Positions 10,236-29,837 of a stretch of DNA of 46,717 nt are shown here, piece by piece. The position numbers and the translations under genes were made by a program. This DNA is from Thainema sp. GTDB taxonomy: Bacteria > Cyanobacteriota > Cyanobacteriia > Phormidesmidales > Phormidesmidaceae. Location: positions 1 to 46,717 of the forward strand of contig JBQLZK010000038.1 of assembly GCA_052168235.1 (NCBI GenBank), given 5' to 3'. Each line of letters opens with the position of its first letter. Position 1 is the first letter of the stretch. Below the pieces are notes generated by a model. The model made no database searches and was not told the DNA's origin. It saw only the letters and a list, made by a program, of their open reading frames with translations.

Positions 10236-10313
10236 GGTTAGGCATTGGGTAGCCGATTAGCCTAAATTATGTACGAAAAGTGAATAAAGATAGAGAAAAG
10301 AGCTTAAAACGCT

Positions 10314-10419
10314 TATATCAAGTTTGGCTGAAAACCCATGATTTATTTTTTGTGAAACGTTTGCGGAGCAAACGTTTCACAAAAAATAAATCGGGTTCTT
10401 ACACACAGGCTTGATATTA
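10314..10419. repeat. Palindromic MITE-like element (family copy 1)
   Basis: ATTTATTTTTTGTGAAACGTTTGC-GGA-GCAAACGTTTCACAAAAAATAAAT with TATATCAAG/CTTGATATT ends; related copies at 26172-26277, 14091-14133 (half) and 20172-20255. Confidence 0.75.
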
Positions 10420-10492
10420 GAATTAGGCTCTTTCAGCAGTAAGTTGTTCTAATTTGGCAAGGACAGAGCGCGAAAATGGAGTTGATATCCGA

Positions 10493-14090: not shown

Positions 14091-14198
14091 CACAAAAAAT
14101 AAATTGGCTTCTTATACACAGACTTGATATTAGCTACACCACCGACTATTTCAGCTCATCAGAGGTTAAGTATCGGGAATTCTAGCGCTCGTTCAGGC

Positions 14199-15503: not shown

Positions 15504-15718
15504 CGAGAGCCGTTATTGCAAATTATTATATTGCCACCGGACACGGTGCTAGCATACTCCCTGCAAGGGTTTCGTGCTTCAGATCACAGACCTGAGATTT
15601 CCTGAGTTTCCTCCCAAAAGCCTCGACAAAGACCATAGTTTTTCCGTAGTGACGGCTACAAAATCGATTGTTAGTTTGGAATCGTCCGATGTTAAAGCCC
15701 CCAACGGAGAAACAATCT

Positions 15719-17701
15719 ATGAACGGTAATCTCGAATTCTTGCTTAATCTCATTATCAGCAATCTGTTCCCTGATGCGCCCCCGATCGATAATTTAGGCG
15801 ACGTTTTCTTTGGTGATGACGGCAACGACCAGTTTGTTGGAGGAGATAAACAAGATATCTTCTTCGGAGGAAAAGGAAACGACAAAATTGAAGGCGGTGA
15901 CGAAACTGACGTAGCCTTCGGTGGTGCAGGTGACGACACTATCGTTGGTCAGCGCGGTGACGACGTTGTTGCAGCCGGTGCAGGTGATGACCGCGTGATC
16001 TGGAACAACGGCGACGGTAGCGACCTAATTGATGGTGGTTCTGGTTACGATGTCTCTGAAGTCAACGGTTCCAACAATAGTGGTGATGAATTCACTCTTC
16101 AGCAAAACGACAAGGGACAAGCCATTTTCGACCGCGTCAACCTCGGCCCCTTCACCCTGACTCAAGACAGCATTGAGCAGATGGAAGTCAATGGTCTAGG
16201 CGGTGACGATTCCTTTACCATCGGTGATTTGTCTAACACAACTATCAAACGCATTCTATTCTCGGGTGGAGACGGTAACGACGTCTTAGATGCACGGGAA
16301 AGTGCAACGCTGATTGAAGCCGATGGTGGTGCGGGTGATGACCTGCTGCAAAGCGGTTCCGCTGCTGACAACCTCAAAGGTGGAGACGGTAACGACACCA
16401 TCGTTGCTCAGCGGGGCGATGATGTGATTGATGCTGGTGACGGTGACGATCGCGTGATTTGGAACAATGGCGACGGTAGCGACCTGATTAATGGTGGCAT
16501 GGGCTTTGATGTCTCTGAAGTCAACGGTTCCAACAACAGCGGTGATGAATTCACCCTCCAGCAAAATGACCAGGGACAAGCCATTTTCGACCGCGTTAAT
16601 CTCGGCCCCTTCACATTAACTCAAGACAACATTGAGCAGATGGAAGTCAACGGCCAAGGTGGCGACGATTCCTTCACTATTGGTGACCTGTCGAAAACCA
16701 CGATTGAAAAGGTCGTATTCTCGGGTGGAGACGGGAACGACGTCTTAGATGCACGAGAAAGTGCAACACCGATTGAAGCCGATGGTGGTGCCGGGGATGA
16801 CCTGCTGCAAAGCGGTTCCGGTGCTGACAACCTCAAAGGTGGAGACGGTAATGACACCATCGTTGCTCAGCGGGGCGATGATGTGATTGATGCGGGTGAC
16901 GGTGACGATCGCGTGATTTGGAACAATGGCGACGGTAGCGACCTGATTAATGGTGGCATGGGCTTTGATGTCTCTGAAGTCAATGGTTCCAACGCTAGCG
17001 GTGATGAGTTCACCCTCCAGCAAAATGACCAAGGACAAGCCATTTTCGATCGCGTCAACCTCGGCCCCTTCACCCTGACTCAAGACAACATTGAGCAGAT
17101 GGAAGTCAACGGCCAAGGTGGTGACGATTCCTTCACCATTGATGACCTGTCGAATACTACGATTCAGAGCATCTTGTTCTCGGGTGGAGATGGCAACGAC
17201 ATCTTGGATGCCGGGAACACCGCAACGCCCATTGTAGCCGATGGTGGCGCGGGCGATGACATCCTGATCGGTGGTTCCGGTGACGATATTCTGATCGGTG
17301 GCGACGGTAGCGACCTGCTGATCGGTGGAGCTGGTAACGACATCCTGATTGGTGGCAACGGGCCGGACAGCTTCGGCTTTGACAGCGGAGCACTGTTCAA
17401 TCCTAGCGATATCGGTACTAACCAGATTCAAAACTTTGATGCGGCTACCGATAGCATCATCCTGGATCAGACGGTCTTCGCCGCCATTACTGGAGATAGC
17501 TTTAGCTCAGACTACTGTGGCATGGTTGCTACCGATGCTGAGGCTGCTTCGAGTGATGCGTTGATTGTCTACAGCATGGGTTCGGGTAACCTGTACTACA
17601 ACCCTAATGGTGCTGAAGATAGCTACGGTAACGGCGGACAGTTTGCCGTGCTTGAAGGTGCGCCAACTCTAACGGCTGATAACTTTGTTGTTCAACCGTA
17701 G
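15719..17701 (+). CDS. Hemolysin-type (RTX) Ca-binding repeat protein
   Basis: Many GGxGxDxL nonapeptides; three near-identical 153-aa (459-bp) modules; no N-terminal signal, consistent with type I secretion; ATG at 15719 with GGAG SD. Confidence 0.9.
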   Translation: MNGNLEFLLNLIISNLFPDAPPIDNLGDVFFGDDGNDQFVGGDKQDIFFGGKGNDKIEGGDETDVAFGGAGDDTIVGQRGDDVVAAGAGDDRVIWNNGDGSDLIDGGSGYDVSEVNGSNNSGDEFTLQQNDKGQAIFDRVNLGPFTLTQDSIEQMEVNGLGGDDSFTIGDLSNTTIKRILFSGGDGNDVLDARESATLIEADGGAGDDLLQSGSAADNLKGGDGNDTIVAQRGDDVIDAGDGDDRVIWNNGDGSDLINGGMGFDVSEVNGSNNSGDEFTLQQNDQGQAIFDRVNLGPFTLTQDNIEQMEVNGQGGDDSFTIGDLSKTTIEKVVFSGGDGNDVLDARESATPIEADGGAGDDLLQSGSGADNLKGGDGNDTIVAQRGDDVIDAGDGDDRVIWNNGDGSDLINGGMGFDVSEVNGSNASGDEFTLQQNDQGQAIFDRVNLGPFTLTQDNIEQMEVNGQGGDDSFTIDDLSNTTIQSILFSGGDGNDILDAGNTATPIVADGGAGDDILIGGSGDDILIGGDGSDLLIGGAGNDILIGGNGPDSFGFDSGALFNPSDIGTNQIQNFDAATDSIILDQTVFAAITGDSFSSDYCGMVATDAEAASSDALIVYSMGSGNLYYNPNGAEDSYGNGGQFAVLEGAPTLTADNFVVQP

Positions 17702-18229: not shown

Positions 18230-18868
18230 CTACAAATTGAGCGGTTGAACATTCAGATCCTTCAGCGTGATTGAAAAATGGCGCTGTTCACCTGTTGCAA
18301 TGAAGGAAACAATCACCTCACAGGCCACCGCAACCGTTAGCATCACCAAATTGCGAGCTAGCGGATAATCACAAATATCATCATTCACGTCCGAAGGTAC
18401 TCGGTAATCATCATTCCAAACCACTTCCGCGTAATCAGCCGCAAGTCCCGCGTGGAGACAAGAAATTCCAGCTTGATCGACGTAATTTTTCACTGCTCGA
18501 CGAGAAATGCTGTTATCAAAAACATCAATGATCAACTTGCTCCCATTAAGGAGTTGGGCAGCATTATCTACAGTTAATTTTTTAGTTTCAATTTCGACCT
18601 TTGTGCCAATTGCTCGATACAGATTATTTGCCAAAATTTTGGCCTTAAATGCACCGACATCGGAACGATAATACGGCTGAGTTGAAAGATTCCGTTCTTC
18701 AATGCGATCGCAGTCAATTACCTTGAGTTTGCCGAACCCAGCCCGAGCCAAATTCTCAGCTAGATTGGCACCCAAAGCCCCCACGCCACAAAGAGTTACG
18801 GGATAGTCCTTCAGCTTTGCCATCACCGCATCGGTTCGGTAAAGTTGTTCATGGAGAAAGATAGTCAT
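18230..18868 (-). CDS. ThiF/E1-like adenylyltransferase (ubiquitin-like activating enzyme)
   Basis: GVGALG nucleotide loop, DxDRIEERNLSTQ, GAFKA, IIDVFDN; no CxxC Zn pairs; Cys in DDICDYP; ATGA overlap with upstream gene. Confidence 0.9.
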   Translation of the reverse strand: MTIFLHEQLYRTDAVMAKLKDYPVTLCGVGALGANLAENLARAGFGKLKVIDCDRIEERNLSTQPYYRSDVGAFKAKILANNLYRAIGTKVEIETKKLTVDNAAQLLNGSKLIIDVFDNSISRRAVKNYVDQAGISCLHAGLAADYAEVVWNDDYRVPSDVNDDICDYPLARNLVMLTVAVACEVIVSFIATGEQRHFSITLKDLNVQPLNL

Positions 18869-19692
18869 AGTCCTTCCATCACACCCACTAAGGATTGCAG
18901 GTCAAAATCGCGATCGCGCCCGCTCAAGCAAATACCAGAGCTGACTACCGTTAAGTCATTTTTTGTGATCGCACTGGTATGGCGAGTGCCGTCAGCCATT
19001 GTCCAATCAACTGTCCAGTACTCACCCCGATCCCGGAACTGGTGCAGTTCGCCGCCGCCAAGTTTGAGCGCCTGCCGCAGTCGGCGCTCGTCGCGCTGCG
19101 GTTGGGCAAATCCGGCTGTGCGCTGCGTGACTAACTCATATAGCGATCGCATTTCGGGCGTCATGTCCTTAAACTGCAAGTCTTCAACCGGAGTGAGCTG
19201 CTTGAGATTAGCTTGCAGGGTTTCTGCGATCTCAGGATCAGCCCGCCGATCAACCTCTTCAAACCAGCAGGACTGACCGTTCCAGCGAGCTGTGATTTGC
19301 TCAAATGCTACGCCTTCGGTTATCAGATGCACCAGCACGGGCTTAACAACTTTGAACCGCTGTCGCATATCCGCTTCATTGACTGGATAAGCTAGCCAGG
19401 TTCGATTCTGTAAGCGATAGGCTAACCGCAAGCGAATCGATTGAAACTGCTGCAAGTATGCAGCAATCTGGAATAGATCAGCTTCTTCTACTAGCGTTAC
19501 GGTCTGCGCATCCACAGGCTGAAAAATCCCCCATCCCTCAAACTGCTCGGGTTTCGGAATAAAGGTGTAAACCATGCCTGCAACCCGCGTGCGGACTCGC
19601 CCAGCCTTGACGCAGGGGGCGAGGAATTGAGTTGTTTGCAGGTGTGCTTCAGCACTGGCAATCTGATTCAAAAGCTGGCGGATGTCAGTCAT
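18865..19692 (-). CDS. Hypothetical protein with candidate E2-like C-terminal domain (SSGICLSG)
   Basis: 275 aa; translationally coupled between NADAR and ThiF; E2 assignment is inferred from G-I-C-L followed by an aromatic residue and an amphipathic helix. Confidence 0.8.
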   Translation of the reverse strand: MTDIRQLLNQIASAEAHLQTTQFLAPCVKAGRVRTRVAGMVYTFIPKPEQFEGWGIFQPVDAQTVTLVEEADLFQIAAYLQQFQSIRLRLAYRLQNRTWLAYPVNEADMRQRFKVVKPVLVHLITEGVAFEQITARWNGQSCWFEEVDRRADPEIAETLQANLKQLTPVEDLQFKDMTPEMRSLYELVTQRTAGFAQPQRDERRLRQALKLGGGELHQFRDRGEYWTVDWTMADGTRHTSAITKNDLTVVSSGICLSGRDRDFDLQSLVGVMEGL

Positions 19693-20125
19693 AGCGCAAA
19701 ATTTCGCGAACTTCCATTAGAATTTGTCCCAGTTTGTTCTTGCCGCTGCCGTCTTTGCCACAGCCCCAGTAGTAGTCAATAGGGGAATTTTCGACGATTA
19801 GTTCATTCCCAGTACTGAGTAAAATTTCTTGAATATTGGCATGGGTGCTAAACTTTTGCAGCACAGCTTTATGCATCACTTCATCCTTGACTTGTTCCCA
19901 GTCGGAACGAAGTGGCAATGTGCGATCGCGCCCCATGTTGGCAGCCTGTTTTGGCGTTTTGGTTTGCCGTACCTTTTCTAGATAAGAAGTGCCGACAAAC
20001 TTTTGTGCCTGAAAGTAATGTTCACTGGTTGCCCAATACAGCTCATCGAGCATGAAGCCATGCGCTGAGAAATTGGAGAAGCAACCGTAGGGTTTCTCTC
20101 GTTCAACGTAGAAATAAATGGTCAT
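19685..20125 (-). CDS. NADAR (YbiA-like) family protein
   Basis: FSNF, TSEHYFQAQKF, R.DWE.VK..VM, KF, LL.TG...IVE.SP.D.YWG.G..G.G.N.LG.ILM.VR. Confidence 0.95.
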   Translation of the reverse strand: MTIYFYVEREKPYGCFSNFSAHGFMLDELYWATSEHYFQAQKFVGTSYLEKVRQTKTPKQAANMGRDRTLPLRSDWEQVKDEVMHKAVLQKFSTHANIQEILLSTGNELIVENSPIDYYWGCGKDGSGKNKLGQILMEVREILRYD

Positions 20126-20171: not shown

Positions 20172-20255
20172 ACCCGACAATTGATTGTTTGAGAAGCTTG
20201 GCTTAGCCAAGCTTCTCAAACAATCAATTGGGTTCTTATACATGGACTCAAATCA
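20172..20255. repeat. Palindromic MITE-like element between RNA unit U1 and NADAR
   Basis: CAATTGATTGTTTGAGAAGCTTGGCT-T-AGCCAAGCTTCTCAAACAATCAATTG followed by GGGTTCTTATAC, as in the 10.3 kb and 26.2 kb elements. Confidence 0.7.
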
Positions 20256-20257
20256 TA

Positions 20258-20463
20258 CCTGCGTGCAAGTTTTTAGAGCATTGCGCGTTCTCAGTTACTT
20301 GGGGGACTCCGCTGGTGAGTTCTTACACACTCTTTCAAGGATGGCTACTTCTAAGCCCACCTCCCAGGTTCTTCGCACTCCCCGTTTACAAGCGCCCACT
20401 GCATGGCAGCGTCACGTTTCCTCTCGTACTCGTATGTAGGCTCCACAGTTTAGGGCACGCAGG
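20258..20463 (-). ncRNA. Y-RNA-like unit U1 carrying 23S sarcin-ricin loop and H42-H44 GTPase-associated-centre mimics
   Basis: Terminal stem CCUGCGUGC/GCACGCAGG; AGUACGAGAGGA at 20430-20419; CUGG-GAGGUGGGCUUAGAAGUAGCCAUCCUUGAAAGAGUGUGUAAGAACUCA-CCAG at 20367-20312. Confidence 0.85.
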
Positions 20464-20467
20464 ATAT

Positions 20468-20484
20468 ATACTACAAATACTACA
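20468..20484 (-). promoter_or_regulatory. Tandem TGTAGTAT boxes overlapping the predicted -10 of the U1-NADAR-E2like-ThiF unit
   Basis: ATACTACA at 20468-20475 and 20477-20484, 4 nt from the U1 5' end. Confidence 0.65.
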
Positions 20485-20698: not shown

Positions 20699-21082
20699 AT
20701 GCCTGTAAAAGAGCTACGTAAGAGCACCATGATGGCACATTTGCTAGATGCGTTGGATGCCGACCAGGATATTCAACATTATGGAAGACTTGTTTTTGCG
20801 ATGGTCGCGCACCATTTTATGGACGAGGAGGAACTAGTAAGCTATCTACAAAAAGGTGGCCATATCAGTGAAGCAGAGGCTCGATCGCTTTATCAGCAGG
20901 TGCAAGCAAAAGACTACAACCCACCCAAACGCGATCGCATTTTGGAGTGGCAGCAGCAGCAAGAGTTTACCATCTGTCCCAATGCCGATGATCCAGATGC
21001 GTGTAATGTTTACAAGGATCTACAGTTTCCAGATCAAGTGTATGAGCACATTTCAGAATATTATGAGCAGAAAGCAACCTAG
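20699..21082 (+). CDS. Hypothetical protein
   Basis: 127 aa with GGGAG SD; HYGRLVF, YNPP and ICP....D.CNVY motifs. Confidence 0.8.
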   Translation: MPVKELRKSTMMAHLLDALDADQDIQHYGRLVFAMVAHHFMDEEELVSYLQKGGHISEAEARSLYQQVQAKDYNPPKRDRILEWQQQQEFTICPNADDPDACNVYKDLQFPDQVYEHISEYYEQKAT

Positions 21083-21110
21083 TAAAAGCAGCTTGTTTGA
21101 TAGTTTGCCG

Positions 21111-21446
21111 TCATGAGAGAGAGGAGAGTTGCTGTAGGGGATACCTGGCTCTAGTTTTGAGGATATTCAAATTATCCACTTGTGCCAGTAAGCGGTCGAG
21201 TGTTGCAGTTTCGCTAGCGGACAACTGATCTTCTGTATTCTGAGCTAGTAGCGCGCCAAGTTGAGTTTGTTCAGCCGAAGCAAGCTGACTGTTGGCTAAT
21301 GCCTGTAATTCCTCCAAGCTTAAGCCTGTCAAAAGCTCCTCGTCAGATGTAGCAGGACTCACAAGACGGTGATGGGTTTCCAAATCAAGCAAAACCCCGA
21401 CTCGCTCTCCTTGTTGATTTGTTATGTACTGCACAGCTTCAGACAT
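21111..21446 (-). CDS. Hypothetical protein with antitoxin-like N-terminus
   Basis: VQYITNQQGERVGVLLDLE resembles N-termini of small antitoxin-like proteins; no adjacent toxin recognised. Confidence 0.65.
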   Translation of the reverse strand: MSEAVQYITNQQGERVGVLLDLETHHRLVSPATSDEELLTGLSLEELQALANSQLASAEQTQLGALLAQNTEDQLSASETATLDRLLAQVDNLNILKTRARYPLQQLSSLS

Positions 21447-21619
21447 GACTCTCTCTATTCAAGTTAGATTAATTCTGACAGGGTTGAGTAAAAATCACTG
21501 TCACTTCATGGACTTTCTTCATGTCGATTATTTACACAGTTTTTGAAGTGTGGTCGAATTTAGCGTCCCGTGCCAAAATAATACAGATGAATAATTTAGT
21601 TATTGTAAGAGGCTAAGGT

Positions 21620-22627
21620 ATGCGATATGCAGTTTGGAATAATAAAGGTGGAGTTGGTAAAACCTTTCTTTCATTTGTATTAAGCACAGAATTTTCTCAT
21701 GCCTTTCCCAGTAGAAATGTAATTTTAGTAGATATGTGTCCACAAGCCAATGTTTCAGAGATTATTCTCGGTGGCAATGGATCGGGTGGTGCTGAAAAGC
21801 TTAATCAGCTTATTGAAGATAGGAAAACAGTGGGAGGGTATTTTGATGAACGTATTAATTCACCACAAAAGCCTACTGAGACGGAAACAAACTATTTACT
21901 AAAAGTACAAGATTACAACTCTAATGTGCCTCCCAATTTGTGGTTGCTTGCTGGTGATCCAAGCCTCGAAATTCAAGCCCAAGTTATTAGCCAGATTAGT
22001 GCACAAACTTTGCCTGTAGAATCATGGAAGAATGTTCATAACTGGTTAAAAGATCTTGTATTAAGCTGTTCAGACAAATTAGGAGAAGATGTAACAGTTT
22101 TTATTGATTGCAATCCTAGTTTTTCAGCATATACGGAGCTTGCGCTTGCAGCAGCAGAACGAATTATTGTACCTTGTACAAGCGATGATTCTTCAGCTAG
22201 AGCTATCAATAATATCGGTGCACTAATATATGGAGTTGGTGTTGATTCCGCTTATAGTACCGTGAATTTTTCTGGTAAGGCAAAAGTATTTGATATGCCT
22301 TTGCCAGAGCTACATTGCGTTGTTTTAAATCGCTCAACTCAATACAATCAAAAAGCAAGTAAGGCTTTTGCTGCTATGTTTAAGGCTATTCAGGAAAGAG
22401 TGAATGATTTGGGGGAAAAAGAAACATTTGTTGCTTCAGGTGAAGAGGTTAGCTTTCAAGAGATCCCAGATAGTCATTCTGTTACGATTGTTTGTTCCCA
22501 TTTAGGAAAGCCTTTGTACAGTATTACACCAGGTAAATACGAGGTTTACGATACAAATCCTCAAGTGAATTCAGAGCCTATAGATCGATATAAAGAAGCA
22601 GTAGCTGCTTTGCTCTCAAAGATTTAA
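21620..22627 (+). CDS. ParA/Soj-family ATPase (orphan, AT-rich)
   Basis: NNKGGVGKT deviant Walker A, VDMCPQAN, FIDCNPS; no parB nearby. Confidence 0.88.
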   Translation: MRYAVWNNKGGVGKTFLSFVLSTEFSHAFPSRNVILVDMCPQANVSEIILGGNGSGGAEKLNQLIEDRKTVGGYFDERINSPQKPTETETNYLLKVQDYNSNVPPNLWLLAGDPSLEIQAQVISQISAQTLPVESWKNVHNWLKDLVLSCSDKLGEDVTVFIDCNPSFSAYTELALAAAERIIVPCTSDDSSARAINNIGALIYGVGVDSAYSTVNFSGKAKVFDMPLPELHCVVLNRSTQYNQKASKAFAAMFKAIQERVNDLGEKETFVASGEEVSFQEIPDSHSVTIVCSHLGKPLYSITPGKYEVYDTNPQVNSEPIDRYKEAVAALLSKI

Positions 22628-22680: not shown

Positions 22681-24150
<1,470 letters not shown>

Positions 24151-24245: not shown

Positions 24246-24433
24246 CCGCGCAAGTTACAGAAGCTAAGTCAGTACTGAGTTACAAGTGCTGAGCTGCTTG
24301 CTCAGTCCTCAGTCCTCATCCCTCAGTCCTAACCTTTTGCCTGCTATGGGTCTCAGGCTTGCAGCGTACACCCCAGTGTACGCACCAGTTTGTGTTTTGG
24401 TAGGGTATGTAAGCTTCTGCGATCGGGGCGCGG
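24246..24433 (-). ncRNA. Y-RNA-like unit U2 (three-hairpin cargo, unidentified; contains a heptamer-repeat insertion)
   Basis: 5' CCGCGC-CCCGAUCGCAGAAGCUUACAUAC ... AGCUUCUGUAACUU-GCGCGG 3'; same scaffold as U1, U3, U4 and U5. Confidence 0.75.
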
Positions 24434-24457: not shown

Positions 24458-24604
24458 CACTTCGTGCAAGTCGAAAAAGCTGTTGTTTCATACACAGGAT
24501 TCGTAGCTTGCTTCCGCGAAGCGGTACCTATGACTGATCGATCCAAAATCGATTGCTCTACCACTGAGCCAGTATGTAAGCTTTTGGGGTTAGGGCACGA
24601 AGTG
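24458..24604 (-). ncRNA. Y-RNA-like unit U3 with embedded tRNA-like cloverleaf (anticodon UUG), T-loop interrupted
   Basis: Stem CACUUCGUGC/GCACGAAGUG; D arm UGGCUCAGUGGUAGAGC; anticodon arm AUCGA-UUUUGGA-UCGAU; T arm AUAGGU[22-nt insert]CGAAUCCUGU. Confidence 0.8.
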
Positions 24605-24608
24605 GGAA

Positions 24609-25340
24609 TTAATTAATTTGATTCAGTTTTTCTTGAATTATTTTGATTTCGCGCTTGTTGCACTGTCGCTTATGGGCAGCATAGAGTTGATTACTAGAAT
24701 GTTTAGATTCTGGTGTAACCGTAGCTCGATGTAGTACATCAAACACAATTTCAGTTGTTGGTACATCTTGATAGGTAATCAAGTACCAAATATCATCAAT
24801 TTTGCGATACTGATGATATGCATCTAGATTCAAACAATCCAACTGCCGATTTGGCTTGGAAGTTGAATCTACAAAAGATGTTGGATCAATATCCTTTACA
24901 TCACAGAGAATACCTGTTTCAGAATGAACATAGAGCTGTAATTGATAACTCCGTGTTAGCCGATATCCTCCATCTGATTTCCGATAAGGAATACCATCAA
25001 TTAGTTCAACATGTCGCTCAACGTAATGCCACACATGGCTCAGGATATGCTGTCCCGATAATGTACTGGTGTCTAGCTGCTGACATAGTTTGCTGTAGAC
25101 ATCGTTCCACGGTTGTCCAACCTGCGATCGCAAATATCGACGTAGGGGAGCAAGATGATCCGAGAAATACTTCGACTTATTTCTAGGTTTAATCAAATAA
25201 GGTCGGAGTAAACCATCTTCGCTTGCTTCTTCGGTTAGTTTATGTAATTGTTTCTTAAAGCCTTTCACTTTTCTCAGGCTTATTCGCATCCCATATCGAG
25301 GACGCTCAATCACAATTTCACTTAAACGATGTTCGCTCAT
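24609..25340 (-). CDS. Basic hypothetical protein (243 aa) within the RNA array
   Basis: MSEHRLSEIVIERPR...DHLAPLRRYLRSQVGQPWNDVYS...LYVH..TGIL; start at 25340 because the longer ORF runs into RNA U4. Confidence 0.8.
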   Translation of the reverse strand: MSEHRLSEIVIERPRYGMRISLRKVKGFKKQLHKLTEEASEDGLLRPYLIKPRNKSKYFSDHLAPLRRYLRSQVGQPWNDVYSKLCQQLDTSTLSGQHILSHVWHYVERHVELIDGIPYRKSDGGYRLTRSYQLQLYVHSETGILCDVKDIDPTSFVDSTSKPNRQLDCLNLDAYHQYRKIDDIWYLITYQDVPTTEIVFDVLHRATVTPESKHSSNQLYAAHKRQCNKREIKIIQEKLNQIN

Positions 25341-25427: not shown

Positions 25428-25609
25428 TTTCATGCAAGTCAGCAAAAGCGATTGACAGCTTACGGTCGCTCTTACCAACAAAGTTGGCAGCGGGCACGTA
25501 TGCTAGATCTGCGAGAGACCTAGAATCACACTTCGCTGGTTCGATCGCTCGAACTTCGCTACCTTAGGACCGTTATTCGTGTGTATGCTTCTGCGGTCGG
25601 GGCACGAAA
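25428..25609 (-). ncRNA. Y-RNA-like unit U4 carrying a circularly permuted 23S domain IV (H67-H71) mimic
   Basis: Stem UUUCGUGC/GCAUGAAA; AUAACGGUCCUAAGGUAGCGAA at 25576-25555; UGCCCGCUGCC...GGUAAGAGCGACCGUAA at 25496-25460. Confidence 0.85.
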
Positions 25610-25618
25610 GAAATCTTC

Positions 25619-25834
<216 letters not shown>

Positions 25835-26008: not shown

Positions 26009-26085
26009 TGGGGTGACTGACGAGAGTCGAACTCGCTAACACTGGTGTCACAAACCAGCCCCTCCACCGCTTCGGGTTCAGTCAC
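26009..26085 (-). tRNA. trnH: tRNA-His (GUG), CCA encoded, no genomic G-1
   Basis: GTGACTG/CAGTCAC acceptor, C73, CCA; CTGGT-TTGTGAC-ACCAG anticodon arm; GCGAG-TTCGACT-CTCGT T arm. Confidence 0.9.
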
Positions 26086-26087
26086 AG

Positions 26088-26161
26088 TGGATTCTGGTCG
26101 GATTTGAACCGACATCTTTCTGCTTGCAAGGCAGATGCTTTCCCAATTAAGCTACAGACCC
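26088..26161 (-). tRNA. trnA: tRNA-Ala (UGC) with 1-nt bulge in acceptor stem
   Basis: GGGTCTG...TAGCTTAATTGGGAAAGC; TCTGC-CTTGCAA-GCAGA; GTCGG-TTCAAAT-CCGAC; 3' CAGA(A)TCCA. Confidence 0.85.
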
Positions 26162-26171
26162 AAGATGAGGG

Positions 26172-26277
26172 TAATATCAATTCCGTGTATAAGAACCCTG
26201 TTTATTTTTTGTGAAATGCTTACTAAGCAAGCATTTCACAAAAAATAAACAATGGGTTTTTAACCGGATTTTATATA
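26172..26277. repeat. Palindromic MITE-like element (family copy 2, inverted relative to the 10314 copy)
   Basis: GTTTATTTTTTGTGAAATGCTT...AAGCATTTCACAAAAAATAAAC. Confidence 0.75.
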
Positions 26278-26280
26278 AAT

Positions 26281-26400
26281 GTCGTGCAAGTTGAAAAAGC
26301 TGTTGATTCATACACAGGACTTGAACCTGCAATCGACTGTTCTAGAGACAGTTGCCCTACCATTAGGCGAGTATGTAAGCTTTTTCGATCAGGGCACGAC
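26281..26400 (-). ncRNA. Y-RNA-like unit U5 with embedded tRNA-like cloverleaf (anticodon CUA)
   Basis: Stem GUCGUGC/GCACGAC and AAAAAGCU/AGCUUUUU; D arm GCCU-AAUGGU-AGGGC; ACUGU-CUCUAGA-ACAGU; GCAGG-UUCAAGU-CCUGU; acceptor CAUAC/GUAUG continues into the scaffold with no CCA. Confidence 0.85.
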
Positions 26401-26402
26401 AA

Positions 26403-26473
26403 CGCACAGACGAGGATTTGAACCTCGAACTACGGTTTTGGAGACCGTTGTGTTGCCGTTACACTATCCGTGC
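26403..26473 (-). tRNA. trnW: tRNA-Trp (CCA)
   Basis: GCACGGA/TCTGTGC acceptor, G73; ACGGT-CTCCAAA-ACCGT; CGAGG-TTCAAAT-CCTCG. Confidence 0.93.
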
Positions 26474-26556: not shown

Positions 26557-26603
26557 ATACTACAATAATACGTATACTACAAAACGTCAAGGGATATACT
26601 ACA
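26557..26603 (-). promoter_or_regulatory. Sigma70-type promoter of the tRNA/ncRNA/Ubl/Ro operon overlapped by three TGTAGTAT boxes
   Basis: -35 TTGACG (26590-26585), 17-nt spacer, -10 TATTGT (26567-26562); ATACTACA at 26557, 26574 and 26596. Confidence 0.75.
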
Positions 26604-26879: not shown

Positions 26880-27341
26880 ATGGCAGACGAACTCAGGACA
26901 TTCAAGATTGATTCTGAGCAGTGGCAGGCGTTCGAAGAGAAGGCAACTGCTAACGGCACTACTGCATCAGAGCTGCTAGAGAGCTATGTACAGCAGTACA
27001 TAAGCGATGATCCAGATAGTAAGTCAGATAGGGTTGATCAGCGCATCAATGCCATTCTGGAACAGCGTTTGGAAGGCTTTGGCGCTCGCTTGTCACAGGT
27101 CGAACAACGCCTAAATGATGATGCAGCTCATCCAAGACAACACATCGGTGAAGGTCTGGGCAATATAGACAAGCATTTGGATCAGCATTTAGGTGATATA
27201 GATGAACACCTGGTCGCCTATCTCGATAATCCAAACGAAACAGAAAAGAAATCTCACCTGCCAAGACAGGCTGTAGAGATTCTAAAAGATCGCCAAGGCG
27301 AGCAGCGACCATCTCAACGCCAACGAGATAGTAACCGTTGA
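26880..27341 (+). CDS. Ribbon-helix-helix (CopG/Arc-like) protein with coiled-coil C-terminus
   Basis: LRTFKID strand, SEQWQAFEEKATANG helix, TASELLESYVQQYI helix. Confidence 0.7.
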   Translation: MADELRTFKIDSEQWQAFEEKATANGTTASELLESYVQQYISDDPDSKSDRVDQRINAILEQRLEGFGARLSQVEQRLNDDAAHPRQHIGEGLGNIDKHLDQHLGDIDEHLVAYLDNPNETEKKSHLPRQAVEILKDRQGEQRPSQRQRDSNR

Positions 27342-27523: not shown

Positions 27524-27553
27524 TTGACGCTATGTAGTACAAGAATGTAGTAT
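27524..27553 (+). promoter_or_regulatory. Promoter of the DIP1984-ncRNA-rtcB unit overlapped by two TGTAGTA(T/C) boxes
   Basis: -35 TTGACG 27524-27529, 18-nt spacer, -10 TAGTAT 27548-27553; TGTAGTAC at 27533 and TGTAGTAT at 27546. Confidence 0.75.
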
Positions 27554-27583: not shown

Positions 27584-28042
27584 ATGAAGCTAGCAGAAGC
27601 CCTGATTGTGCGGGCAGATTGTCAAAAGCGGATTGCTCAACTTCAGCAGCGCCTCATGCGGAGCGCCAAAGTGCAAGAAGGCGAGCAAGCGCCCGAAAAC
27701 CCACAGGAACTGCTGGCTGAGCTAGATGCAGCAATTGTTGAACTGACTCAACTCATCCAGCAAATTAATAAAACCAACGCTATTACCTCCTTGCAGGATC
27801 AGACTCTGTCTGAAGCCCTCGCCCAGCGGGACACCCTGCAAACGAAGCGCAATATTTACAGTCGCTTAATTGAAGCAGCAGCGATTCAGCCAACTCGCTA
27901 TAGTCAATCTGAAGTCCGCTTTGTCAGCACCGTCAACATCGCCGAACTTCAGCGCCAAGTGGATACACTGGCTCGCGACTATCGCGTTCTGGATTCTGCG
28001 ATTCAGGAGATCAACTGGCAAGTTGATTTACTCGATAATTAA
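27584..28042 (+). CDS. DIP1984-family coiled-coil protein
   Basis: MKLAEAL..RAD.QKRI.QL..R......VQEG..P.E.P..L...IN.TN...RYS.SE....S......LD..IQ..NW..DL. Confidence 0.88.
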   Translation: MKLAEALIVRADCQKRIAQLQQRLMRSAKVQEGEQAPENPQELLAELDAAIVELTQLIQQINKTNAITSLQDQTLSEALAQRDTLQTKRNIYSRLIEAAAIQPTRYSQSEVRFVSTVNIAELQRQVDTLARDYRVLDSAIQEINWQVDLLDN

Positions 28043-28574
28043 CGGAAACTGTATCGCCTCATACTAACCACATCCGGCTCTCCTCGCTCTATGGGCTACT
28101 GTTTATACATAAGTCTCCTAGACTTCGTTTCGACATTGAGATCCCCCCTAGCCCCCCTTAAAAAGGGGGGAATTGGCTCAAAGTTCCCCCTTTTTAAGGG
28201 GGATTTAGGGGGATCAGTCCGGGGTTTATAAAGACTATTCAGAAGTATATAAGCAGTAGCCCTATGGGCGAGGGGCTGGGGGTGAGAGCAACAGCAGGTA
28301 GCTCATTCATCACGAAGCGAACACAACCCGCCAACGGGGTTCAGTTGGAACTTACCAATCTAGAAAATTGGTCTTTGGTTGCACCGGGGCAGTGCGGTGG
28401 GTTCGATTCCCCTTACAACTGATGCCCAGCATTGTTACAGGCGTACTGTGCATTGTTATCGCGTACTACCACGTGTTGATCGAGATGAATGAGTGAGGGT
28501 GGGTTCGGGGTTTACGCTGTTGATCCGGTGAGCATCAACTCAAAATATTAGGTGGGGGCAGGTTGAGCCGTTAA
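28039..28574 (+). ncRNA. Candidate large structured RNA between the DIP1984 gene and rtcB with a tRNA-like subdomain
   Basis: Long-range pairs TTAACGG/CCGTTAA, CTCATTCATC/GATGAATGAG and TCAGTTG/CAACTGA; T-loop GGGTTCGATTCCC; anticodon-like ACCAAT-CTAGAAA-ATTGGT. Confidence 0.6.
28078..28288. repeat. Nested cyanobacterial palindromic repeats inserted in the DIP1984-rtcB spacer
   Basis: Inner ATCCCCCCTAGCCCCCCTTAAAAAGGGGGGA...TCCCCCTTTTTAAGGGGGATTTAGGGGGAT inside GGGCTACTG/CAGTAGCCC and CCTCGC/GCGAGG arms. Confidence 0.75.
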
Positions 28575-28655
28575 ATAATTGGTTTAGATCACAATTGATC
28601 AACGAAACCTGCTTCTACAGAAGGCACATCTTTCAATGGTTCAAGGAGAATCAAC

Positions 28656-29837
28656 ATGTCCTATCAACAACTCAAAATCTCTACACCAGCGCCTGTGTTC
28701 TCCTGGGCCAATCACGACCTGGGACACGCCGAAATCAGCATGGCGAAAAACGTTGCGTCCCTTCCCTTCGTGTTTAAGCATGTGGCGCTGATGCCCGATG
28801 TGCATCTGGGTAAAGGTGCGCTAGTTGGCTCCGTCATTGCTACCAAAGACGCCATTATTCCGGCAGCAGTCGGCGTAGACATCGGCTGCGGCATGTGCGC
28901 CATTCAAACGCCGTTTCAGGCCGACCAGCTTGACGGCAAGCTGAAGAAAATCCGCTCGGATATTGAAGCGGCGATTCCGACGGGCTTTGACCAGAATAAG
29001 GAGTCCGATAAGCAAGTCGATAACTGGCAGGGCTGGCAGCAGTTCAAAGAGCTGCATTCCGGCGTGCAGCACCTAGCGGGCAAAGCCCAAAAGCAAATGG
29101 GTTCGCTGGGTGGCGGCAACCACTTCATTGAGGTGTGTCTGGATACCAACGATCAGGTGTGGCTGATGCTGCATTCTGGTTCGCGCAATATCGGCAACAT
29201 GCTGGCTCAGAACCACATCAAGACGGCCAAAGAAGTGGCGAAGCTGGCCGAAATGAAGCTACCTGATCCCGATCTGTCCTACTTCGTAGCCGGAACGCCG
29301 GAGTTTGCCGCTTACTGGCGCGATTTGCAGTGGGCGCAGGACTATGCTCGGTTCAACCGTGAGGTGATGATGACTCGCTTCAAGCGAATTGTCGAAAAAC
29401 ACCTGGCAGGCGGCAAGCCAATCAAGCCACTGCTGTCGGTAAACTGCCACCACAACTACGCCGAGCAGGAAACTCACTTTGGCGAAGCGGTGTATGTCAC
29501 CCGCAAGGGAGCCGTGCGCGCTCAAACCAATGACTACGGGATTATTCCCGGTTCAATGGGCACCAAGTCCTACATTGTCAAGGGCAAGGGCCATGCCGAT
29601 AGCTACTGCTCATGCAGCCACGGTGCTGGCCGCACGATGTCCCGTAACCAAGCTAAGAAGCGCTTTTCACTGGATGATCTACTCCAGCAAACCGAAGGCG
29701 TGGAATGTCGTAAGGACAAGGGTGTCTTGGATGAAATTCCAGGTGCCTACAAGCCAATCGATGAGGTGATGGCTAGCCAGTCTGACCTGGTTGAGATCGT
29801 GGCAACCCTAAAGCAGGTCGTCTGCGTGAAAGGCTAG
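28656..29837 (+). CDS. rtcB: RNA-splicing/repair ligase RtcB
   Basis: MPDVH.G, VGVDIGCG, GSLGGGNHF.E, LHSGSR, NCHHNY, RKGA, IPGSMG, HGAGR, DEIP.AYK, KG. Confidence 0.98.
   Translation: MSYQQLKISTPAPVFSWANHDLGHAEISMAKNVASLPFVFKHVALMPDVHLGKGALVGSVIATKDAIIPAAVGVDIGCGMCAIQTPFQADQLDGKLKKIRSDIEAAIPTGFDQNKESDKQVDNWQGWQQFKELHSGVQHLAGKAQKQMGSLGGGNHFIEVCLDTNDQVWLMLHSGSRNIGNMLAQNHIKTAKEVAKLAEMKLPDPDLSYFVAGTPEFAAYWRDLQWAQDYARFNREVMMTRFKRIVEKHLAGGKPIKPLLSVNCHHNYAEQETHFGEAVYVTRKGAVRAQTNDYGIIPGSMGTKSYIVKGKGHADSYCSCSHGAGRTMSRNQAKKRFSLDDLLQQTEGVECRKDKGVLDEIPGAYKPIDEVMASQSDLVEIVATLKQVVCVKG

Follow-up and report, generated by a model that had tools for sequence, protein, structure and literature searches.

The window, by which we mean the whole 46,717-nt stretch of DNA analysed here, is one contig of a 7.5-Mb cyanobacterial assembly. 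It contains a minus-strand operon in which small RNA units lie among protein-coding genes. The features of the operon are listed below, and the gene-content counts are taken from the best 80 of 298 Ro loci.

26557-26603, minus strand: three TrcR-type boxes, TGTAGTAT, at the probable promoter of the operon (promoter-like site 26590-26562)
26012-26473, minus strand: three ordinary tRNA-like genes at the operon head (26403-26473, 26089-26161 and 26012-26085)
26282-26399, minus strand: sister unit with the same scaffold as U4 and a tRNA-like cargo
25619-25819, minus strand: 66-aa ORF ending in an invariant Tyr-Gly (70/80 loci)
25428-25609, minus strand: U4, an ncRNA gene of Y-RNA-like form that carries a permuted miniature of 23S H67-H71 (23S match and covariation)
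24609-25340, minus strand: conserved 243-aa ORF with no family match (56/80 loci)
24462-24600, minus strand: sister unit with the same scaffold and a tRNA-like cargo with an inserted hairpin
24246-24433, minus strand: sister unit with the same scaffold and a three-hairpin cargo
22681-24114, minus strand: 477-aa Ro60/TROVE-vWA-fold protein (profile and predicted structure)
20468-20484, minus strand: two more TGTAGTAT boxes, immediately before the SRL/L11-site unit
20261-20460, minus strand: sister unit with the same scaffold, carrying the sarcin-ricin loop (SRL) and the H42-H44 L11 site (Rfam LSU match 20312-20367)
19685-20125, minus strand: NADAR-family hydrolase (Pfam E 1.7e-43; 7/80 loci)
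18865-19692, minus strand: conserved ORF of 275 aa in which a Cys motif is invariant (65/80 loci)
18230-18868, minus strand: ThiF/E1-like adenylyltransferase (Pfam E 1.4e-25; 62/80 loci)

A profile of 89 relatives of the 477-aa protein matched human RO60 (E 1.9e-17) and the Rsr of D. radiodurans (E 3.2e-8). The alignment-based model of the protein, which replaced a single-sequence fold with a pLDDT of 44.6, reached a pLDDT of 95.6, and the first 12 Foldseek rows for this model were all Ro60 proteins (best E 6.9e-12, TM 0.72). Pfam gave a weak vWA domain only, and TROVE gave no match. The 66-aa ORF, whose C-terminus is invariant in 32/32, had no Pfam or NCBIfam match and is probably ubiquitin-like. 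The 275-aa ORF had no database or structure match; its Cys motif is possibly E2-like. An E1-like enzyme and a small Gly-terminal protein, the latter with a putative beta-grasp fold, are both present, as in ubiquitin-like conjugation systems. The interval from the Ro gene to the SRL unit holds an insertion of a ParA-like ATPase and two small ORFs (20699-22627), and the ATPase and a 111-aa ORF were found in 0/80 related loci (best 80 of 298). The window also holds a family of long inverted repeats (10312-10420, 14091-14133, 20178-20257 and 26172-26279), one copy of which lies inside the tRNA cluster, and a plus-strand 677-aa ORF (15668-17701) with 459-nt and 27-nt Gly-rich repeats that is RTX-like by appearance.

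The first-pass annotation had described the cargo of U4 as a circularly permuted miniature of 23S domain IV, and every string it quoted was found where it had been placed. The parts of U4 are, in the order of transcription:

25597-25609, minus strand: 5′ arm of the terminal bulged stem, which would bind Ro; paired with 25428-25437
25587-25592, minus strand: 5′ arm of the second scaffold stem, paired with 25444-25449 (90.4% paired; 3/6 pairs with two-sided change)
25551-25576, minus strand: equivalent of 23S 1916-1941, comprising the 3′ strand of H69 and the 1925-1937 core (25/26 nt)
25535-25559, minus strand: two pairs enclosing the H71-position hairpin (25558-25559 with 25535-25536), presumably the equivalent of 23S pair 1933-1967 and its neighbour (base counts)
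25539-25554, minus strand: hairpin in the H71 position (96% paired; 4/5 pairs with two-sided change)
25498-25531, minus strand: H67-position helix (25527-25531 with 25498-25502) with a new cap hairpin (25503-25523)
25460-25496, minus strand: truncated H68, made of the 1834-1844 equivalent, a short cap and the 1896-1913 equivalent
25462-25467, minus strand: 5′ strand of H69, the 1906-1911 equivalent, paired with 25568-25573 in permuted order
25428-25437, minus strand: 3′ arm of the terminal bulged stem

Numbered by E. coli rrlB from NC_000913.3, the 22-mer at 25576-25555 is identical to 23S 1916-1937, and extension to 1941 gives the 25/26 nt listed above. The segment 25496-25486 is identical to 23S 1834-1844 at 10/11 positions, and 25476-25460 matches 1896-1913 at 14/18 with one gap. 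Both segments sit downstream of the 1916-1937 equivalent in U4, which is the permuted order that the first-pass annotation had proposed. Aligned jointly, the downstream segment of the window copy beat 1491 and 1494 of 1500 shuffles against two 23S references (9 and 6 shuffles reached its score), and it outscored all 520 and all 433 other windows of these references. The family profiles of the two downstream segments ranked first over the whole 23S at 1834 and 1896 (E. coli and two cyanobacteria), although each profile taken singly scored no higher than about the shuffled maximum. The downstream half of two relatives (L344 and L345, among eight rows tested) had no significant match to either 23S. 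The 22-mer region was the only domain-IV 23S match in the assembly, and no assembled 23S gene was found in it. No family matching U4 was found in Rfam 15, and a search with RF02541 does not detect U4.

The hairpin in the H71 position and the helix in the H67 position had been read as counterparts of the 23S helices. Their position bears this out; their sequence does not, since in the window copy it matched 23S no better than 1259/1500 shuffles, which scored equally or higher. The 5′ arm of the H71-position hairpin doubles as the continuation 1938-1941. A relative (L371) carries what is by sequence a shortened true H71 (4/1500 shuffles), and a sequence match to H71 was limited to the L371 group. 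We also considered H64/H66 as the source of the cap hairpin, and the 23S profile comparison gave no support for this. The U4 family comprises 62 rows and 61 distinct copies from at least five cyanobacterial families. Seven positions (1919, 1926-1928 and 1930-1932) are invariant in 62/62 rows, as is 1936.

The fold of U4 is supported by covariation across homologous loci, which the first-pass annotation had suggested looking for. In the 33 closest rows, 97.4% of the cells are paired, and 16/50 pairs show two-sided change. In a set of 40 of the 61 rows, with Nostocales thinned and two broken-end rows and one later-found row left out, 91.1% are paired and 29/47 pairs changed on both sides, a number reached by 0/500 shuffles. 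Slid controls for this set were 30-41% paired. A count of further pair types was not above shuffles (114/500 were as high). All four inner H69 pairs show two-sided changes, and 1836-1904 and 1843-1897 covary too. Among the 40 rows, pair 1836-1904 is UA in 25 and CG in 15, pair 1843-1897 is CG in 31 and UA in 8, and the 1933-1967 equivalent is G-C in 26, C-G in 7, G-U in 4 and other in 3. Pair 1840-1902 is C-G in U4 and G-C in 23S. The H67-position helix is 86.6% paired and its cap hairpin 77.1%. Mapped on a tree, the flips of 1836-1904 amount to five changes, and the U-A versions of 1906-1924 and 1907-1923 each require six changes for six rows and are therefore recurrent. Other flips involve few events, with one change each for 1843-1897 and 1908-1922 and two for 1933-1967. 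The letters of the H69 stem are free to vary while pairing is kept. The helices are kept by compensatory change, as in a structural mimic of 23S H67-H71. Thus, U4 is a permuted, structurally constrained miniature of 23S H67-H71 with an rRNA origin.

These data bear on two readings in which the RNA plays no part. According to the first, suggested in the first-pass annotation, the DNA is a target or decoy for the homing endonucleases of 23S group I introns. The window copy holds 22 exact bases of a conserved segment that we take to be most of the I-CeuI site. However, the exact 22-mer is present in 1/62 rows, which is this window only; the median row has 3 mismatches, and 48/62 rows have at least 3. 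Changes in the H69 stem mostly keep RNA pairs, no intron-sized insertion occurs in the aligned copies, and the H68 half and the scaffold are left unexplained. Because the 22-mer is peculiar to the window and stem changes mostly keep RNA pairs, what selection preserves is the structure of the RNA, not a site in the DNA, and we find the endonuclease proposal hardly tenable. The second reading is that U4 is passive rRNA debris or an assembly artefact. In its favour, the genome's own 23S is unassembled and the window copy is the closest to real 23S among all 62 rows. Against this stand the 61 distinct copies, some of them in complete or nearly complete genomes, and the place of the U4 core, which starts 48-117 nt after the 66-aa ORF in 31/31 loci with both (within the best 80 of 298). 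The copies are permuted instead of collinear with 23S, and their compensatory changes move away from the 23S sequence. The chance of debris or artefact is next to negligible, in agreement with the first-pass annotation, which had argued that passive debris would not show such an arrangement.

The energy model gives a different picture of the window copy. Its MFE structure, in the nearest-neighbour model, forms neither the permuted H69 nor the H68 base. Relative to the MFE, the rRNA-like fold costs 9.1 kcal/mol, and its pair probabilities are 0.27 for H69 and 0.00-0.02 for H68. The core without the scaffold gives 1.0 for H69 and 0.01-0.06 for the H68 base. The family median for H69 is 0.11, calculated with a column-based constraint that puts intact-loop rows at a disadvantage. 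In the E. coli controls, real as well as permuted, H69 and the H68 base do form (0.87/0.83/0.66 for the permuted control). The re-formed, permuted H69 of the first-pass annotation is thus upheld by the covariation of its inner pairs and is lacking from the MFE of the window copy. The rRNA-like fold may depend on Ro, magnesium or tertiary contacts, or the window copy may be partly decayed.

The first-pass annotation had also described the H69 loop as opened into the scaffold, and as a defining trait this did not hold for the family. The scaffold enters via the H69 loop in 48/61 copies, including the window copy, and 13/61 keep a complete loop hairpin on the 5′ arm. Of these 13 copies, 6 close the loop with G-C at 1910-1920 and 7 with C-G, and 9/13 keep the adjoining pair. 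The 13 do not form one clade, since a single origin was rejected for them (p-AU 0.0004). A single origin of the 11 stem-permuted copies had a p-AU of 0.19 and was hence not rejected. Since the permutation point moves among copies, the constant element is the H69 stem and junction and not a pre-cut loop. In L384 and L392, the intact H69 loop takes the form of a 5-nt insertion within a split-loop lineage, which suggests repeated regain.

The scaffold, whose nature the first-pass annotation had not given, is a Y-RNA-like stem beside a gene with the Ro60 fold. The 5′ and 3′ ends of U4 pair into a long bulged stem, as in Y RNAs; this terminal stem is 99.6% paired, and 5/6 pairs show two-sided change. 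The Ro60-fold gene lies 1.3 kb downstream of U4 on the same strand, within the approximately 4 kb expected of Y RNA genes. In Y RNAs, according to the accessible text of one study, the terminal stem binds Ro and tethers an effector, and Rsr acts in 23S maturation (PMC4201824). By this likeness, the terminal stem of U4 is a putative Ro-binding stem. Four sister units, all on the strand of U4, have the same ends as U4, and the scaffold is therefore present five times in the operon. U4 itself lacks other traits of the YrlA type. A tRNA-like domain with its D and T arms is found in sister units, and no tRNA was called on U4. The literal YrlA motif GNCGAAN0-1G is not in U4, whose 5′ arm reads GUGCCCCGACC, and its length of 182 nt is outside the 80-130 nt given for YrlA-type RNAs in the accessible text of PMC4201824. 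Because the tRNA domain, motif and length all differ, we do not regard U4 as a YrlA member and prefer to call it a Y-RNA-like RNA with an rRNA-mimic module, with Ro binding putative.

One scaffold carries interchangeable cargos. Sorted by cargo motif, 459 scaffold units comprise 258 tRNA-like, 55 H69, 40 SRL, 64 short and 42 other units. The SRL unit is as striking as U4. Its sarcin-ricin 12-mer (20419-20430) equals 23S 2654-2665, and its L11-site part of 69 nt has 81% identity to cyanobacterial 23S H42-H44 (E 2e-13). The unit also includes a short capped helix. It fuses two 23S sites 1,500 nt apart that together form the factor-binding centre, as far as the accessible text of PMC8661411 describes it. 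It was found in 54/80 loci (best 80 of 298 Ro loci) and is commoner than U4. The three-hairpin cargo matched none of 16S, 23S and 5S; it is conserved directly upstream of the Ro gene and occurs in at least 13 loci (L004:1812, L034:7799 and L042:7800 among them).

Several smaller or rearranged units were seen in related loci. Mini-units of approximately 97 nt lie near U4 in L374, L375, L379 and L393, and their cargo is only the H71-position hairpin and its enclosing pairs; these are perhaps mimics of H70-H71 only. Permuted tRNA cargos, with the T arm before the D arm as in the YrlA topology, occur on the same scaffold beside normal-order ones (L026:6140-6290, L033:5981 and L005:6645). Units of approximately 70 nt carry only a small hairpin, in some cases anticodon-arm-like (L034:5840, L041:6307, L348 and L369). 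In the window, ARAGORN calls a tRNA-Pyl with a CUA anticodon at 26305-26377 (minus strand). This is a scaffold-bound mimic and the call is misleading for annotation.

Both U4 and the Ro cassette are sporadic. Using a covariance model, we found full-length U4 copies in 5/151 genomes of the phylum, 4/52 and 22/121 genomes of two families, 1/151 in the window's own order and 1/151 in a class sample. The Ro subfamily was found in 46/401 phylum genomes and in 3/151 of the window's own order, and the cassette is thus patchy. U4 is present in 32/80 Ro loci (best 80 of 298). Within the same best 80, it occurs in 31/66 loci with more than 3.5 kb upstream and is missing from 35/66, and U4 is therefore dispensable. 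A Ro-like gene was found in 5/5 divergent U4 genomes tested. A plasmid search gave two records, both cyanobacterial. The Ro locus is also plasmid-borne (L042; NZ_CP083583.1), which fits a patchy spread. In viral sequences, a scan based on a distant homologue gave no relative. A scan of metagenome and viral contigs for the permuted-order pattern gave 120 and 119 matches, of which 0/239 were matched by the U4 core profile; the pattern was too loose.

The five TGTAGTAT boxes at two promoters compare with 0.34 expected per window (55 in the genome), as would be found in a set of TrcR-box promoters. This sequence was footprinted by TrcR, a repressor released under translational stress, in the main text of PMC10272220, and rtcB is there under TrcR control in Anabaena. 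The main texts of PMC10272220 and PMC8421152 describe TrcR targets as induced by translation antibiotics, and in the second of these papers it was speculated that the Anabaena trn operon serves as a tRNA sponge (PMC8421152). The boxes suggest that the U4 locus may be under TrcR control. On the plus strand, a DUF6847/DIP1984 gene and rtcB lie at 27584-29837, with a TGTAGTAT box at 27546. A divergent 153-aa ORF (26880-27341, plus strand) has a weak RelB-type match (E 0.087) and is absent from 80 related loci; it is a possible repressor or an insertion.

The combination of an H69 stem with an L11 site under such promoters could be read as a small-molecule sponge that absorbs ribosome-binding antibiotics. 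The H69 stem holds an aminoglycoside site. H43-44 is the thiostrepton loop (accessible text of PMC8661411), and the induction of TrcR targets by translation antibiotics would also suit a sponge (PMC10272220, PMC8421152, main texts). However, the letters of the H69 stem vary freely while its pairs are kept, the titration of a drug at 1:1 is inefficient, and the tRNA units and the ThiF module are left unexplained. We think a sponge very unlikely.

A Y-RNA-like scaffold beside a Ro60-fold gene supplies both a precedent, the permuted tRNA mimic of YrlA, and a mechanism. Our leading proposal, which we hold with middling confidence, is a stress-induced Ro RNP whose rRNA and tRNA mimics bait enzymes that attack the ribosome. 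In translational stress, the operon would be derepressed through its TrcR-type boxes, and the transcript would be processed and loaded onto Ro. The terminal bulged stem of U4 would place the RNA on the neighbouring Ro60-fold protein. The cargo would fold like the H67-H71 junction of the 50S subunit face, and both chain ends appear, by covariation, to have been moved into H69 so that the domain hangs on the stem. The Ro particles would present mimics of H67-H71, of the SRL/L11 factor-binding centre and of tRNAs, and this panel would lure ribonucleases or RNA-modifying toxins away from the ribosome proper and keep them at the particle. Captured enzymes would perhaps be tagged by the co-encoded ubiquitin-like protein and ThiF enzyme. 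Tagging is the least certain and boldest step, since it draws on the gene neighbourhood and on a possibly E2-like Cys motif that has no database match. A stronger form of the proposal, in which one Ro60-binding scaffold with exchangeable ribosome and tRNA parts hands baited toxins to the co-encoded ubiquitin-like conjugation, with the RNA as the substrate adaptor of a ligase, would be an undescribed defence system; we regard this form as speculative and rather unlikely.

We favour the bait because the cargos match listed targets of ribosome-attacking toxins. The SRL and anticodon loops are named as the main ribotoxin targets in the accessible text of PMC9304027, H44 is the target of Tre23 (accessible text of PMC8661411), and Ribocin cuts H69 in animal ribosomes (accessible text of PMC13189344). 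No bacterial toxin acting on H69 in bacteria was found in the literature searched, which was in part abstracts. As the tip of the H69 loop is split in 48/61 copies, a nuclease that cuts the loop would hardly suit the family as a whole. Also counted against the bait are the rarity of two enzymes, RtcB (within 8 kb in 1/80 loci) and NADAR (7/80 loci) among the best 80 of 298, and E2 and ubiquitin-like labels that lack a database match. The predicted fold of the window copy, the dispensability of U4, the absence of the YrlA motif and the single-event flips weigh against it as well. The idea of a decoy for factors, modifying enzymes or toxins acting at H69-H71, raised in the first-pass annotation, plausibly fits the locus context.

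The main rival to the bait is a tether to host machinery, in which the mimic docks Ro on the 30S, or binds factors that read H67-H71 in recycling, splitting or modifying, to park, repair or degrade damaged ribosomes. The surface formed by H67, the H68 base, H69 and H71 is the subunit-bridge face, and it is what U4 retains. Residues 1919 and 1926-1936 are the invariant ones, and the loop tip is not among them. Y RNAs link Ro to effectors, as Rsr to PNPase, and Rsr acts in 23S maturation (accessible text of PMC4201824); RtcB lies near the window locus and is TrcR-controlled in Anabaena (main text of PMC10272220). A tether is less easily squared with the loop residues that contact h44 and the release and recycling factors, which are split in 48/61 copies, and a patchy, dispensable cassette would be odd for a housekeeping role. 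On balance, the tether is possible and somewhat doubtful. A further proposal keeps the toxins and changes the role of the RNA to that of a sentinel substrate, which a toxin cuts or modifies first, so that the damaged RNA on Ro triggers the ubiquitin-like/ThiF pathway or lifts repression. A panel of toxin-target mimics and a conjugation-like module do lie in one locus, and damaged tRNA induces rtcB in Salmonella (cited in the main text of PMC10272220). The boxes imply, however, that the RNAs are made after the stress and not before it, and database domain searches found no sensor domain among the locus proteins. We consider the sentinel improbable.

U4 is real, conserved and, it seems, undescribed, an RNA that copies large rRNA on the Ro/Y-RNA mimic design. 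An rRNA-mimicking Y RNA was not found in the literature searched, which was mostly at the level of abstracts and main texts without supplements and covered subscription journals thinly, and a prior mention is possible. The mimic-bearing bacterial Y RNAs known so far copy tRNA. Here, large-rRNA centres are copied, in one case with permutation and in the other by fusion of two distant domains. Each cargo names a likely class of partner, so that the binding targets of Ro/Y-RNA effector modules become directly testable. U4 and the SRL unit can serve as they stand as minimal models, the one of H67-H71 and the other of the factor-binding centre, and the conserved positions of the mimics reveal which part of the 50S face is read.

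Compared with known systems, U4 has partial likenesses to four. With 23S domain IV (RF02541) it shares the H69 stem, the 1925-1937 core, the H68 base and the order of helices at the junction. It differs in being permuted, in having lost the distal H68 and in having the sequences of H67 and H71 mostly replaced. With the Anabaena TrcR regulon and trn operon, the locus shares TGTAGTAT promoter boxes, extra tRNA genes, a nearby rtcB and a proposed toxin-sponge role; Ro60, TROVE and Y RNA are absent from the main text of both studies (PMC10272220, PMC8421152). The D. radiodurans Rsr/Yrn1 system (RYPER) has the Ro60 fold and, in the accessible accounts, a link between Ro and 23S rRNA metabolism, whereas Yrn1 tethers PNPase and is not described there as a copy of rRNA. 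The closest likeness in the design is to YrlA, whose effector module is a permuted tRNA placed on a Ro-binding module (accessible text of bioRxiv 10.1101/312249). As far as the accessible texts go (PMC4201824; bioRxiv 10.1101/312249), both RNAs consist of two modules, a terminal stem and a permuted mimic of a translation RNA, and both genes share their strand with a Ro60 ortholog that is less than 4 kb away. The cyanobacterial loci contain permuted units of the tRNA type as well, and the cyanobacterial YrlA candidates in the supplements of PMC4201824 may overlap the tRNA-type sister units. The differences from YrlA in those texts are that the cargo of U4 is 23S H67-H71 instead of a tRNA, that U4 has 182 nt and no GNCGAAN0-1G, and that its partner would be a divergent Ro subfamily invisible to Pfam TROVE, in a locus that adds a probably ubiquitin-like ORF and a ThiF enzyme.
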